From Polyangiales bacterium (GTDB lineage Bacteria > Myxococcota_A > Polyangia > Polyangiales > Ga0077539), in contig JAXLYI010000006.1 of NCBI GenBank assembly GCA_046351555.1, positions 58,284 to 122,283 on the forward strand: a DNA stretch of 64,000 bases, in the 5' to 3' direction. A program made the position numbers and the translations under genes. The notes beneath the pieces were generated by a model. The model worked only from the letters and a program-made list of their open reading frames with translations, was not told the DNA's origin and ran no database searches. Shown here piece by piece: positions 37,557 to 41,672 of this stretch (its first letter is position 1; each line of letters opens with the position of its first letter).

Positions 37557-39488
37557 TCAGAGCTCGATCTGGGTGCCGAGCTCGACCACGCGGTTGGGGG
37601 GGATCTGGAAGAACATGTTGGCCGGCCGCGCGTTGCGCGAGAGGAAGGCGAAGAGGCCCTTGCGCCAGCGGGCCATGCCGGCGCGGCCGGTGGTGAGCAG
37701 GGTCTCGCGGCCGAGGTAGAAGCTCGCGCCCTCGACGTCGACGTCGAGCCCGCGGGCGCGGGCCTCGCGCAGGGCCTCGGGCACGTCGGGGGTCTGCATG
37801 AAGCCGTAGCTGGCCGTCACCTGCCAGAAGCCCTCGCCGAGCTCGCGCAGCGTCACCCGCTCGTCGCGCGACACCTCGGGCACGTGGAGCGTCTGGACGG
37901 AGAGCATCACGACGCGCGCGTGGAGCACCTTGTTGTGCTTGAAGTGGTGCAGGAGCACGGGCGGGGCGCCGTCGGGGTTGGAGGTCATGAAGACGGCGGC
38001 GCCCGGGACGCGGTGGGGCCTCGTCGCGCGCACGTCGTCGAGGAAGAGCTCCATCGGGAGCGTGCTGGCGATGATGTGGCGGCCGAGGGAGGCGCGGCCG
38101 CGCTTCCAGGTGGTCATCACCGCGAACACGCCCGCGGCCACCGCGACGGGGAACCAGCCCCCCTCGCGGAGCTTCACCAGGTTGGCCGCGAGGAAGCCGA
38201 GGTCGAACACCAGGAAGAGCCCGACGAGCGCGGCCCCCTTCCACGCCGGCCACCCCCACTGGCGCGTGAGCTGGAAGAAGAGGATCGACGTGATGCTCAT
38301 CGTGCCGGTGACCGCGATGCCGTAGGCCGCGGCGAGGGCGGTCGACTCGCGGAAGGCGATCACCAGCGCGACGCAGGCCACCATGAGCAGGCTGTTGACC
38401 TCGGGGACGTAGATCTGCCCCTCGGCCTCGCCGGAGGTGTGGACGATGGTGACGCGCGGGCAGTACCCGAGCTGGACGGCCTGCTGGGTGAGCGAGTAGG
38501 CGCCCGAGATGAGCGCCTGCGAGGCGACCACCGTCGCGAAGGTGGCGAGCGCGACCATCGGGAAGACCAGCCAGCCGGAGAGGAGCCCGAAGAAGGGGTT
38601 GGCCCGCACGGCCTCGTCGCCGCCGCGGTCGAGCAGCAGCGCGCCCTGGCCGAGGTAGTTGCAGAGCAGCGACGGCAGCACCACCGCGTACCAGGCGCGG
38701 CGGATGGGGCGCGCGCCGAAGTGGCCCATGTCGGCGTAGAGCGCCTCGCCGCCCGTGATGCAGAGCACCACCGAGCCGAGGAGGAGGAAGCCGTGCTTGC
38801 CGTGCTGCGAGAAGAAGGAGACGGCGTGGGCGGGGTTGACGGCGCCGAGCACCTCGGGGTGGCGCGCGATCCAGGGCAGGCCGGCGGCGGCGATGGCGGC
38901 GAACCACGCGAGCATCGCCGGGCCGAACACGGCGCCGACGCCCGCGGTGCCGCGCTTCTGCACGAGGAAGAGCCCGACGAGGATCGCGACGGTGATCGGC
39001 ACGACGTAGGGGTGGACGCGCGTGGTGGCGACCTCGAGCCCCTCCACCGCGGACAGGACGGAGATCGCGGGCGTGATGACGCCGTCGCCGTAAAGCAGCG
39101 CCGCGCCGAAGAGCCCGAGCGCCACCATCGCGCCGCGCGCGACGCCGCGGGACCCGGGCGCGCCGGGGTCGGCCTTGGGCGTCACCAGCGCGAGGAGCGC
39201 GAGGATGCCGCCCTCGCCGCGGTTGTCCGCGCGCATGATGAAGGTGATGTACTTCACGACGATCACCAGCACGAGCGACCAGACGATGAGGGAGAGGACG
39301 CCGAGGACGTTGGCGGGCGTGGGGTCGACGCCGTGGCCGCGCGCGAAGCACTCCTTGACGGCGTAGAGCGGCGAGGTCCCGATGTCGCCGTACACGACGC
39401 CGAGGGCGCCGAGCGCGAGCCGCGCCACGCCCTCGCCGGCTTGCCCCTGGGGGGCGGCGCCCGTGGCGGGCGCGGTGTGGGTGGACAT
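37557..39488 (-). CDS. kup: KUP/HAK/KT-family potassium uptake transporter
   Basis: The N-terminal signature LALGALGVVYGDIGTSPLYA is followed by 12 TM helices and a cytoplasmic C-terminal domain. Length is 643 aa. Confidence 0.9.
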   Translation of the reverse strand: MSTHTAPATGAAPQGQAGEGVARLALGALGVVYGDIGTSPLYAVKECFARGHGVDPTPANVLGVLSLIVWSLVLVIVVKYITFIMRADNRGEGGILALLALVTPKADPGAPGSRGVARGAMVALGLFGAALLYGDGVITPAISVLSAVEGLEVATTRVHPYVVPITVAILVGLFLVQKRGTAGVGAVFGPAMLAWFAAIAAAGLPWIARHPEVLGAVNPAHAVSFFSQHGKHGFLLLGSVVLCITGGEALYADMGHFGARPIRRAWYAVVLPSLLCNYLGQGALLLDRGGDEAVRANPFFGLLSGWLVFPMVALATFATVVASQALISGAYSLTQQAVQLGYCPRVTIVHTSGEAEGQIYVPEVNSLLMVACVALVIAFRESTALAAAYGIAVTGTMSITSILFFQLTRQWGWPAWKGAALVGLFLVFDLGFLAANLVKLREGGWFPVAVAAGVFAVMTTWKRGRASLGRHIIASTLPMELFLDDVRATRPHRVPGAAVFMTSNPDGAPPVLLHHFKHNKVLHARVVMLSVQTLHVPEVSRDERVTLRELGEGFWQVTASYGFMQTPDVPEALREARARGLDVDVEGASFYLGRETLLTTGRAGMARWRKGLFAFLSRNARPANMFFQIPPNRVVELGTQIEL

Positions 39489-39559
39489 GACGGGCGGTGG
39501 TGTACCCGCGGCCGCATCAAGGGGCCGTCAAGGTTGCGCCCGGGCGCATCAAGAATGCG

Positions 39560-40261
39560 TCAAGACTCGCCCGGCACGCGGAGCCTGTAGCCGACGCCCT
39601 GCTCGGTGTGGAGCAGCGCGGGGCGCGCCGGGTCGCGCTCGACCTTGCGGCGCAGGGCGGCCATGTACACGCGGAGGTAGTGGGGCTGGTGGGTGTGCCC
39701 GGCGCCCCACACCTCGCGGAGCAGGTGCTGGTGGGTGAGGACGCGGCCGGCGTTCTGCGCGAGGAGGGCGAGGAGGCGGTACTCGATGGGCGTGAGGTGG
39801 AGCTCGGCGCCGTCGAGGGTGACGACGCGGCGCGCGAGGTCGACGCGGAGGGGCCCGGCGGCGAGCACGGGCTCGGCGGCGGCGCCCGCGGCGCGCGCGT
39901 GGCGCAGGGCGACGCGGAGGCGGGCGAGGAGCTCGTTCACACCGAAGGGCTTGGTGAGGTAGTCGTCGGCGCCGGCGTCGAGGGCCTCGACCTTGTCGGC
40001 CTCGCGGCCTCGCGCGGAGATCACGATGACGGGCACGCGGCTCCACTCGCGCACGCGGCGGGTGAGGTCGATGCCGTCGCCGTCGGGCAGGCCGAGGTCG
40101 AGGAGCACCACCTCGGGCGACTGCGCGGTGAGCGCGGCGAGGCCCTCGGCCGCGGTCGACGCCTCCGCCAGCCGGAAGCCGTGGGCGCCGAGCGTCGCGC
40201 GGAGGAAGCGCCGCATCGCGGGGTCGTCTTCGATCAGCAGCACGAGGGCGGCGTCGCTCAC
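39560..40261 (-). CDS. kdpE: OmpR-family response regulator, KdpE-like
   Basis: The GTG start overlaps the sensor kinase stop (GTGA). The receiver reads VLLIEDDPAMRRFL...VLLDLGLPDGDG. The winged-helix output domain ends ..GVGYRL. Confidence 0.8.
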   Translation of the reverse strand: MSDAALVLLIEDDPAMRRFLRATLGAHGFRLAEASTAAEGLAALTAQSPEVVLLDLGLPDGDGIDLTRRVREWSRVPVIVISARGREADKVEALDAGADDYLTKPFGVNELLARLRVALRHARAAGAAAEPVLAAGPLRVDLARRVVTLDGAELHLTPIEYRLLALLAQNAGRVLTHQHLLREVWGAGHTHQPHYLRVYMAALRRKVERDPARPALLHTEQGVGYRLRVPGES

Positions 40262-41400
40262 GGCGCGTCTCCTTCGGGGGGCAGCGAGGGCCCGGGGCCG
40301 CTCGGCGGGAGGGTGAGCGCGAAGGTGGCGCCGCCGCCCTCGCGACGTCGCGCGGCGAGCGCGCCGCCGTGGGCCTGGGCGATGCCGCGCGCGATGGCGA
40401 GGCCGAGCCCGACGCCGCCGCCGCCCGTGTGGAAGAAGCGTTCGAAGACGCGGGCCTCGGCGCCCTCGGGGAGCCCGGGGCCGCGGTCGGAGACCTCCAC
40501 CTCGACGCCGCCGTCGGGCAGCGCGCGGGCGGCGAGGTCGAGCGGGCTGGTGTGTGGTGTGTGGCGCGTGGCGTTGTCGAGGAGGTTGAAGAAGAGCTGC
40601 TCGAGGAGCACCGGGTCGACCGAGACGAGCGGGAGGTCGTCGGGGATCGCGACGCGCACGAACCGCCCGGCGAGCTTCGCGTCGAGGCGGGTGAGGGCCG
40701 AGCCCACGACCTCTTCGAGCGGGACCCACTCGCGGCGCACGGTGACGGCGCCCGACTCGAGGCGGGTCATGTCGAGGAGGTTGGCGATGAGGCGCTCCAT
40801 GCGCTCGGCCTCCTCGCAGATGGTAACGACCATCTCGTCGCGCTGGGCGGGGGCGAGGCCCGCGGCGTCGTCGCGGAGGGTGGTGGCGGCGCCGGTGATG
40901 GCGGCGAGGGGCGTGCGGAGGTCGTGCGAGACGGCGCTGAGGAGCGTGCTGCGGAGCTTCTCGGCCTGGGCCTCGACGGCGGCGGCGCGGGCCTCTTCGG
41001 CGAGGCGGGCGCGCTCGGCGGAGAGGGCGGCGGTGCGGGCCTCGCGGGCGTGGGCTTCGGCCTCGCTTCGGCGGAGGCGCAGGGTGAGCGCGGCGATGAC
41101 CTGGCCGATGACGAACATCGCGGCGAAGGTGACGAGGTGGCGCGGGTCGTCGACGGCGAAGGTGAAGCGGGGCGTGATGAAGAAGAAGTCGTAGGTGGCG
41201 ACGGAGAGGGCCGCGGCGAGCACCGAGGCGCCGCGGCCGAAGCGCGCGGCGGCGGCGACGATCACGAGGAGGTAGACCATCGCGGTGTCGGGCAGCGCGA
41301 GCCACGGGTGGGCGAGCCACGAGACGGCCGTGGCGAGCGCGACGAGGGCGGCGGCCTGCGGGTAGACGCTCCAGTGCGCGCGGGCGGGGGCGTCGCTCAT
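40258..41400 (-). CDS. sensor histidine kinase with a KdpD-type C-terminal module only (DUF4118-like membrane domain + HisKA + HATPase); the N-terminal KdpD/Usp sensing domains are absent
   Basis: Four N-terminal TM helices end with the conserved KdpD segment ...ATYDFFFI.PR.TF. The H-box is LLSAVSHDLRTPLAAI. The G-boxes are DRGPGLP...GGGVGLGLAIARGI. Only 380 aa, against about 890 for full KdpD. Confidence 0.75.
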   Translation of the reverse strand: MSDAPARAHWSVYPQAAALVALATAVSWLAHPWLALPDTAMVYLLVIVAAAARFGRGASVLAAALSVATYDFFFITPRFTFAVDDPRHLVTFAAMFVIGQVIAALTLRLRRSEAEAHAREARTAALSAERARLAEEARAAAVEAQAEKLRSTLLSAVSHDLRTPLAAITGAATTLRDDAAGLAPAQRDEMVVTICEEAERMERLIANLLDMTRLESGAVTVRREWVPLEEVVGSALTRLDAKLAGRFVRVAIPDDLPLVSVDPVLLEQLFFNLLDNATRHTPHTSPLDLAARALPDGGVEVEVSDRGPGLPEGAEARVFERFFHTGGGGVGLGLAIARGIAQAHGGALAARRREGGGATFALTLPPSGPGPSLPPEGDAP

Positions 41401-41672
41401 CGCGGGGGATCATCGCGGCGGCGGAGCCCGCGCTCAACCGTGAAGAGCCGCCGGATGGAGAAGAAGGCGAGCAGCCCGAGGGTGCAGGTCTCCGCGTCCC
41501 ACGGCCCGCGCGCGAGGGCCACCGCGCCCACCCGCAGCGCCCCCACCAGCGCGAGGAACCACAGCAGCGCCCGCTCGTCGAGCGCGTCGTCCGGCGGCGG
41601 CGGTGGCGGAGGCGCGGGCGGCGGCGGGGCGTCGCGGTAGGGGGCGGTGGGTCGGTCGGGCGGCGCGTCCAT
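41397..41672 (-). CDS. small Pro-rich membrane protein (two predicted TM helices), overlapping the kinase start
   Basis: 91-aa ORF with a 4-bp overlap with the kinase start. The hydrophobic segments are LLWFLALVGALRVGAVALA and LGLLAFFSI. Confidence 0.3.
   Translation of the reverse strand: MDAPPDRPTAPYRDAPPPPAPPPPPPPDDALDERALLWFLALVGALRVGAVALARGPWDAETCTLGLLAFFSIRRLFTVERGLRRRDDPPR

Follow-up and report, generated by a model that had tools for sequence, protein, structure and literature searches.

A short KdpD-type kinase and a KdpE-type regulator adjoining kup in a Polyangiales bacterium form a probable autoregulated potassium-uptake switch

What is the regulation target of a KdpD/KdpE-type two-component pair when the gene that follows it codes for Kup, a permease that takes up K+, rather than for the Kdp pump? 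This question is raised by a locus on the minus strand of a 64,000-nucleotide stretch of DNA from a Polyangiales bacterium (contig JAXLYI010000006.1, positions 58,284 to 122,283; the whole stretch is hereafter referred to as the window, and its G+C content is about 75%). Five genes are located at 36630-41672 in the order of a small open reading frame (ORF), a KdpD-type sensor histidine kinase, a KdpE-type response regulator of the OmpR family, kup, and murI. A previous reading made from the letters of the window (the sequence-only reading) described this gene order together with the GTGA overlap between the kinase and regulator genes, and proposed that a minimal KdpD/KdpE pair governs kup; the order agreed with the ORF calls, and the overlap was borne out in the sequence. 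Based on the evidence given below, the locus is probably an autoregulated potassium-uptake switch derived from KdpD/KdpE, and it belongs to a wider set of short pairs, mostly of Myxococcota, that adjoin Kup, KimA-like, or TrkHA importers.

The small ORF (41397-41672, minus strand; 91 residues) has a stop codon that overlaps the ATG of the kinase gene (ATGA), and the stop codon of the kinase gene (40258-41400, minus strand; 380 residues) is in turn overlapped by the GTG start of the regulator gene (39560-40261, minus strand; 233 residues). The distance from the regulator gene, referred to as kdpE below, to kup (37557-39488, minus strand; 643 residues) is 71 nt and not 72 nt as originally given, and murI (36630-37505, minus strand) follows kup after a gap of 51 nt. 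With E. coli KdpA, KdpB, KdpC, and KdpD as tblastn queries, neither kdpABC nor a gene for the N-terminal part of KdpD was detected in the window, so that the earlier statement on the lack of kdpFABC holds for these 64 kb. An identical kinase with its neighbours in the same order was also found on an independent metagenome contig of ENA (L001, 14.7 kb; L numbers designate the related loci compared in this study), and the only other occurrence of the identical kinase was on a 2.6-kb Logan contig. The best match among genome contigs came from a Polyangiales metagenome-assembled genome (MAG), of which the kinase is 73% identical. As a possible fifth member of the system, murI was rejected: the window and the identical L001 are the only places where it comes after kup, and different genes take its position in L006 and L003.

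The kinase consists of a membrane domain, a coiled-coil linker, a DHp domain, and a catalytic domain. The Pfam domains identified were DUF4118 (PF13493, 8.5e-28) at residues 16-118, HisKA at 150-217, and HATPase_c at 262-366, and the best NCBIfam family was KdpD with 269.5 bits (next 142), the match being confined to profile positions 641-883. On BLASTP analysis, residues 7-122 aligned with residues 392-511 of E. coli KdpD, which include transmembrane (TM) helices 1-4, and residues 116-365 aligned with residues 639-880. The membrane domain is 35% identical to E. coli KdpD 392-550 by BLASTP (kinase residues 7-165) and 44% identical to residues 415-515 by tblastn, and the best PDB matches were 6lgq (kinase core of KdpD, 1e-43) and 2ksf (membrane domain of KdpD, 1e-14). 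No counterpart of E. coli KdpD residues 1-391, the KdpD serine-kinase domain plus Usp, was detected by Pfam or BLASTP. The GAF domain is absent as well: there is no Pfam match to it, and E. coli residues of about 512-638 have no homologous counterpart, whereas kinase homologues of 510-530 residues do carry GAF (PF13492). Pfam, NCBIfam, and BLASTP altogether agree with the earlier description of the kinase as only the C-terminal membrane, HisKA, and HATPase portion of KdpD; the absence of the KdpD and Usp domains at the N-terminus stood as described, and the loss of GAF, which had not been spelled out, has to be added. The kinase phylogeny that had been suggested as a check was also run. In a neighbour-joining tree of the DHp/CA core (no bootstraps), all the short kinases including that of the window fell within the KdpD clade, scattered among the full-length KdpDs of Myxococcota and a long way from PhoR and EnvZ of E. 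coli. The N-terminal KdpD domain is known as a serine kinase that phosphorylates Ser162 of KdpB (Silberberg et al. 2024, PMC11018627), and a kinase that serves no Kdp pump would have no need of this module.

How could such a truncated protein transmit a signal? In the AlphaFold2 model of the kinase (mean predicted local distance difference test score, 73.9), three short helices are followed by one continuous helix of residues 86-177, which spans TM4 and the linker and extends into the DHp helix with His159; after it come the other helix of DHp and then the catalytic domain. Among 20 aligned short homologues, the spacing between the invariant Arg108 and His159 is 51, 44, 37, 30, or 23 residues. 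The linker of the window kinase is that of 51 residues, and the homologues differ in linker length by whole heptads only. The steps of seven are therefore taken as the signature of a coiled coil of which the register has to be kept, and these features suggest that input enters at the membrane domain and reaches the kinase core by mechanical coupling. K+ sensing has been assigned to both the TM domain (external K+) and the GAF domain (internal K+) of KdpD (PMC11018627), of which the TM domain is retained here.

The partner of the kinase carries the Pfam domains Response_reg and Trans_reg_C. Its best NCBIfam family is KdpE with 275.9 bits, followed by MtrA with 193 (a margin of 83 bits), and the PhoB profile scored 109 bits below KdpE. 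The identity to E. coli KdpE is 55% over 221 residues (BLASTP). Four residues of E. coli KdpE, D52, R193, R200, and T215, are aligned and identical in the regulator; the first is the phospho-acceptor, and the last three are needed for DNA binding by KdpE (PMC3264566). The identity of Kup is also supported, with 608 bits for K_trans (PF02705) and 175 bits for K_trans_C (PF22776) by Pfam; the protein passes TIGR00794 (552.5 bits versus the cut-off of 539.6) and stays under the E. coli-type equivalog NF008015 (715 versus 883).

If kup is controlled by the regulator, binding sites are expected in its upstream region. Two copies of a 17-bp box composed of two direct-repeat half-sites, TTGAYG-N5-TTGATG, were identified in the kdpE-kup gap, and two more upstream of the small-ORF operon, all on the minus strand. 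In the gap, the distal KdpE-type box is located at 39547-39563 (-) (TTGACGCATTCTTGATG), its first half-site overlapping the kdpE stop codon, and the proximal box at 39515-39531 (-) (TTGACGGCCCCTTGATG), followed by a putative -10-like hexamer, TACACC, at 39499-39504 (-). Upstream of the operon, the distal box is at 41731-41747 (-) (TATACGCCTTTTTGACG), the proximal box at 41699-41715 (-) (TTGAGCCCCTCTTGATG), and the putative -10-like hexamer, TACCCC, at 41683-41688 (-). The layout is identical to the nucleotide at the two places: the boxes are 15 nt apart, TACACC or TACCCC follows the proximal box after 10 nt, and another 10 nt separate this hexamer from ATG. Given this short distance from the -10-like element to ATG, the leader of kup mRNA is predicted to be very short or absent. 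The pattern TTGASG-N5-TTGATG with one mismatch or less was found three times in 64 kb versus 0.07 expected, and all three are located in the two intergenic regions of the locus; the distal box of the kdpE-kup gap matched the pattern exactly.

A position weight matrix was constructed from 15 sites, taken only from kdpF/kdpA upstream regions of other organisms and from E. coli, and both strands of the window were scanned with it. Among 127,968 window positions, the four boxes of the locus ranked first (39547-39563, 28.7 bits), third (41699-41715, 19.8 bits), fourth (41731-41747, 19.5 bits), and fifth (39515-39531, 17.6 bits). The second-best match, at 14307-14323 (-) (TTGACATTTCCTCGACG, 21.0 bits), was not counted as a KdpE target because it reads as an ordinary promoter: the sequence is TTGACA-N16-TAGACT, a promoter of the sigma-70 type located before a minus-strand ORF that starts near 14247, and the second half-site is poor. 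No terminator was found between kdpE and kup. RNA control of kup by a riboswitch was also considered and rejected, since the Rfam scan of the window gave no family at threshold, the c-di-AMP riboswitch included.

The boxes share the geometry of the E. coli KdpE half-sites, TTTATA-N5-TTTACA (PMC3264566). When the related loci and the window (1.32 Mb) were searched for same-strand box pairs with gaps of 0-40 nt, 28 pairs were found at a gap of 15, one each at gaps of 5 and 26, and none at any other gap. The gap-15 pairs are followed by kdpF or kdpA in 11 cases, by kup in five (the window, L006, L050, L088, and L089), and by a KimA-like permease in four; two precede kinase operons (the small-ORF operon of the window and L009), and the remainder precede genes without assignment. 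A hexamer that starts with TA (TAnnnN) is located exactly 10 nt past the proximal box, as exemplified by TACAAT at the kdpFABC promoters of L049 and L055. The 17-bp box is present upstream of kup in L003, L006, L028, L040, L050, and L075, and inverted copies occur upstream of kup in L033 and L039. The same box precedes kdpF or kdpA in loci with full-length KdpD from Planctomycetota, Acidobacteriota, Myxococcota, and other groups; that of L078 is an E. coli-like version (TTTATActttcTTTGCA).

Upon alignment of the kdpE-kup gaps from the window, L088, L089, and L006, the half-sites were found to be invariant and the spacers variable, and the -10-like element was conserved as TACAYC (TACACC or TACATC) in L006, L088, and L089. 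The proximal box of the operon is also invariant in L088 and L089. In the 80%-identical relative L088 (1432-1470, plus strand), the two boxes before the small ORF of the kinase operon are 5 nt apart and not 15; the pair gives four half-sites at 11-bp intervals, as if one helical turn had been deleted with the phasing kept.

Since the kdpFABC promoters share with it both the tandem module and the spacing to the TA hexamer, kup carries, by sequence, a KdpE-dependent promoter of the kdp type. To our knowledge, phosphorylated KdpE acts as an activator of kdpFABC in every case studied, and because the geometry of the kup promoter is identical to that of kdpFABC, the regulator would activate rather than repress kup. 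The description of this kup as the constitutive-type transporter carries over a notion from E. coli; the gene here looks inducible.

Is the linkage to kup a property of this locus alone? The 80 genome loci, together with the contigs that carry metagenomic homologues, were classed by tblastn, Pfam, and reading, and about 26 distinct loci of short kinases were recognized. Ten of these adjoin kup (the window, L003, L006, L033, L040, L041, L050, L075, L088, and L089, the partial ORF of the last translating into the N-terminus of Kup), and another ten adjoin KimA-like permeases (L010, L011, L013, L037, L044, L063, L090, L091, L097, and L098), which are APC-family proteins of 630-710 residues (AA_permease_2); the permease of L011 matches B. 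subtilis KimA (6s3k) at 4e-52. One locus adjoins trkHA, three adjoin kdpFABC (L009, L026, and L033, which is also counted under kup), and three have no recognized partner (L012, L054, and L048). The position of kup is downstream in L006, L088, and L089 and divergent upstream in L003, while L033 has a kup at either end of the pair; upstream and co-directional placement also occurs among the relatives, and the flanking genes vary too, as functional coupling predicts. For comparison, 34 of the 44 loci with full-length KdpD carry kdpB in the fetched DNA, and two carry kup instead (L039 and L083). A plasmid collection was also searched for the combination of short kinase and kup, and all the matches were full-length kdpD genes; a "DUF4118 protein" on an Ideonella plasmid turned out to belong to a normal kdpFABC-kdpD-kdpE cluster and is not a short kinase. 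It is proposed tentatively, with somewhat less than even odds, that the short KdpD-derived kinases with the membrane domain alone as input region form, together with KdpE, a distinct and widespread family, mainly in Myxococcota, which would induce secondary K+ importers (Kup, KimA-like, and TrkHA) through the promoter module of kdpFABC, in at least some genomes without any Kdp pump.

Some of these neighbourhoods have features of their own. In L099 (1624-5659; also in L100), the short kinase and KdpE genes are divergent from trkH-trkA, and the intergenic region between them contains box pairs in both directions (3334-3350 on the minus strand and 3364-3412 on the plus strand). L033 (7853-20964), from an uncultured deltaproteobacterial MAG, carries kup, short kinase, KdpE, a second kup, kdpFABC, and a gene for only the N-terminal part of KdpD, with KdpE boxes at 9726, 11740, and 13829; a short pair can therefore occur together with a Kdp pump and a split KdpD, and could here control both kup and kdpFABC. 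The pair of L063 adjoins a KimA-like APC permease (5141-7162, minus strand) with a C-terminal P-II nitrogen-regulatory domain, and a second kinase/KdpE pair of the TM-GAF type is present on the same contig. A more distant short kinase (39% identity) is encoded downstream of an ammonium transporter gene (Amt) in L048 (7534-9255, plus strand), where a search for KdpE boxes gave no strong match. In L083, where kup precedes a full-length KdpD gene without kdpFABC, the contig end (1-115) carries a perfect 12-nt tandem repeat, CACCGAATCCGT, in at least nine copies immediately before or within the 5' end of kup.

Gene organizations such as that of L033 bring in another explanation, in which the pair is the kinase half of a split KdpD, with kdpFABC elsewhere in the genome as the main target and kup as an extra member of the regulon. 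A split KdpD composed of a KdpD/Usp protein and a TM/GAF/DHpCA kinase has been documented (PMC11018627). The relatives L017, L031, and L033 carry a gene for the KdpD N-terminal part alone after kdpC; kup, the short pair, a second kup, kdpFABC, and kdpD(N) are joined within 11 kb in L033; short kinases adjoin kdpFABC in L009 and L026; and the same boxes are present at kdp and kup promoters. Against these observations, no kdpABC or gene for the KdpD N-terminus was found in the 64 kb of the window, within 10 kb on either side in L003 and L008, or in the 15-kb contig of L006, and only three of the about 26 short-kinase loci are near kdpFABC, while 21 adjoin secondary K+ importers. The split system is thus a real possibility, though a somewhat doubtful one. 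It is compatible with regulation of kup, and would turn "instead of" kdpFABC into "as well as".

The favoured reading, an autoregulated potassium-uptake switch, can be described as follows. Loss of the KdpD/Usp N-terminus and of GAF would have removed the need for a Kdp pump as partner. The membrane domain would report K+ shortage, leading to phosphorylation of His159 and transfer of the phosphoryl group to the KdpE-type regulator, dimers of which would then bind the tandem pair of direct-repeat boxes located at the -35 region. Binding upstream of the small-ORF/kinase/regulator operon would give rise to autoregulation, and binding in the 71-nt gap would activate transcription of a short-leader or leaderless kup mRNA. 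The transcription starts are predicted about 6-8 nt after TACACC and TACCCC. The proposal that a minimal KdpD/KdpE pair governs kup has thus gained support in silico from three independent lines, the kup linkage, the tandem boxes, and the KdpD/KdpE ancestry of the two proteins.

Several points weigh against this reading. Both proteins score below the cut-offs of their families, the regulator with 275.9 bits versus 325 for the KdpE equivalog (NF007820) and the kinase with 269.5 bits versus 1123 for whole-protein KdpD (NF007793), the latter since the protein lacks over half of the profile. The choice of sites for the matrix, in kdp upstream regions, was made by eye; TTGACG and TTGATG, the half-sites, are similar to the -35 hexamer of sigma-70 promoters, and the match of rank 2 looks like a plain promoter. 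TACACC is without the usual final T of a -10 element, and a scan for consensus sigma-70 promoters found none between kdpE and kup. GAF, to which intracellular K+ sensing is assigned, is missing from the kinase, and the signal could therefore differ. In S. fredii, the one species in which this was tested, KdpE binds the kdpFABC promoter and not the kup or trkA promoters (PMC9239096), and control of kup by KdpE is therefore not general. In addition, kdpFABC located elsewhere in the genome may be the main target, as considered above.

Part of these points would also fit a fortuitous adjacency, with kup constitutive and the TTGA hexamers representing plain -35 elements or the AT-richer composition of intergenic DNA. 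The half-sites resemble TTGACA, and the high-scoring match at 14307-14323 has the appearance of a plain promoter; E. coli expresses kup constitutively (PMC5458449), and kup is unbound by KdpE in S. fredii (PMC9239096). Such a coincidence is, however, highly improbable, considering that the box pattern occurs three times versus 0.07 expected and in this locus only, that the pairing at a gap of 15 is strict (28 versus 0-1 at any other gap), that the layout is identical at both promoters of the locus and at the kdpFABC promoters of other phyla, that the half-sites are conserved with the spacers variable, and that the linkage to kup survives three different gene arrangements.

The signal itself has to be considered separately, as the wiring to kup could be real and the kinase could sense osmolarity, ionic strength, membrane state, pH, or NH4+, K+ uptake then being adjusted for osmoadaptation and not for scarcity of K+. 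This alternative agrees with the absence of GAF, one of the two regions to which K+ sensing is assigned in E. coli (PMC11018627), with the ammonium transporter gene adjoining the short kinase in L048 and the P-II domain fused to the permease in L063, and with the small membrane ORF before the kinase, which, like the unrelated ones in L090, L091, and L097, might supply input. It appears unlikely, however, since the membrane domain is clearly of the KdpD type, to which sensing of external K+ is assigned (PMC11018627), and the neighbouring target genes are almost all those for K+ importers. In the favoured reading, K+ would be the signal of the autoregulated switch.

How does this predicted switch compare with known systems? 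The similarity to E. coli KdpD/KdpE includes the 55% identity and the DNA-contact residues of the regulator, the TT-initiated 6-bp repeats 5 bp apart, the four-helix membrane domain with the DHp/CA core, and the stop-start overlap of the kinase and regulator genes. The difference is that the window kinase is without residues 1-391 and GAF, and that the adjacent target is kup and not kdpFABC. The half-sites of the window are GC-shifted (TTGAYG versus TTTAYA) and form a tandem of two boxes, of which the proximal one borders directly on the -10 region, whereas a single KdpE site is located further upstream in E. coli. The split KdpD is similar in that an N-terminally truncated KdpD-type kinase is encoded by its own gene and paired with KdpE (PMC11018627), and different in that the window has no GAF, no partner gene for KdpD/Usp, and no kdpFABC. 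The survey of KdpD architectures that described it covered Kdp-annotated species only, and kup, KimA, and Trk are not mentioned there as targets (PMC11018627).

The closest precedent comes from Azotobacter, for which it is stated, at the level of annotation, that kupA is the distal cistron of the kdpD1-kdpE1 operon and is regulated by the products of these genes; A. vinelandii DJ is reportedly without a Kdp ATPase (PMC4465626). The wiring idea has therefore a precedent. Azotobacter is a gammaproteobacterium and the case is an annotation statement, whereas the window has a minimal kinase with TM input alone and a kup with its own box pair; evidence of binding sites or of expression for kdpD1-kdpE1-kupA was not found in the searched text of that paper (PMC4465626). 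The wiring is thus already known in kind, and what is added here is the promoter module, the predicted autoregulation, the KimA-like/Trk family, and the heptad linker. Analysis of Caulobacter KdpE by chromatin immunoprecipitation sequencing was considered as another precedent for control of kup and was rejected, for the motif is different and kup is not among the targets given in the sections consulted. In open-access papers and preprints, no experimental study of KdpE-kup wiring was found, nor was any report of the minimal kinase with TM input alone, of the shared promoter module, or of the KimA and Trk associations.

With respect to the mechanism only, the layout can be compared with the pho promoters, at which tandem direct repeats with 11-bp periodicity bound by PhoB stand in place of the -35 element, upstream of the -10 hexamer by about 10 bp. 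PhoR/PhoB is similar in the OmpR-family regulator and in the same box-N10-TAnnnN layout, and differs in the clade of the regulator and in the signal. In Firmicutes, riboswitches for c-di-AMP control importers of the kimA, ktr, and kup types; transcription of secondary K+ importers is controlled there, too, by K+ status, the difference being that the control is RNA-based.

The small ORF at the head of the operon has a Pro-rich N-terminus and one clear hydrophobic segment at about residues 34-54. No match was found in Pfam or NCBIfam. Its G+C content at codon positions 1, 2, and 3 (0.83/0.62/0.91) is coding-like, and homologues with 55-69% identity are located at the same position in L088 and L089; the small ORF evolves at a faster rate than the genes next to it. 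An accessory membrane partner of the kinase is a possibility for its product. ORFs of 111-121 residues with hydrophobic stretches also precede the short kinase in L090 (7599-7934), L091 (8407-8769), and L097 (6116-6481), and are only 19-26% identical to the 91-residue ORF of the window; these may be recurrent non-homologous accessory genes, or noise of gene calling.

The divergent neighbour of the operon (41786-42937, plus strand), of which the start is 39 nt from the distal KdpE-type box, codes for a protein of 383 residues in which a UPF0227-like hydrolase region at the N-terminus is combined with a NADAR domain at the C-terminus, and is not kept in the relatives. Just beyond murI, a Cys-rich protein of 576 residues with many C..G..C repeats and a signal-like N-terminus is encoded at 33703-35433 (minus strand), and a predicted protein of 345 residues with an unbroken run of about 15 prolines at 35602-36639 (plus strand). 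Downstream of an aldehyde dehydrogenase gene, a long repeat protein rich in Gln, Gly, and Phe (GGFGQPQQGGFGQP...) is encoded at about 47700-49387 (plus strand), and the region after the repeat is listed as DUF3829 for the identical contig L001.

KdpD/KdpE is the textbook K+ sensor, and where and how the sensing takes place is still debated, one reason being that the E. coli protein combines five domains and two enzymatic activities. A natural kinase of 380 residues that consists only of a membrane bundle, a coiled coil, and a kinase core would be much easier to use for the question of whether external K+ is read by the membrane domain on its own. If the short pairs do form the distinct family proposed above, the four-helix membrane bundle of KdpD would be a self-sufficient K+ sensor, coupled to its output by a heptad-quantised coiled coil and possibly assisted by a small membrane protein, the gene for which directly precedes that of the short kinase. 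The data further suggest that the Kdp pump is not the only target under transcriptional control by KdpE. Importers of the Kup, KimA-like, and Trk types, usually taken as constitutive or as being under the control of c-di-AMP, may in a large group of soil bacteria be members of a KdpE regulon with a recognisable promoter module, and the arrangement box-N15-box-N10-TAnnnN could be used directly for prediction of KdpE targets in high-GC genomes.

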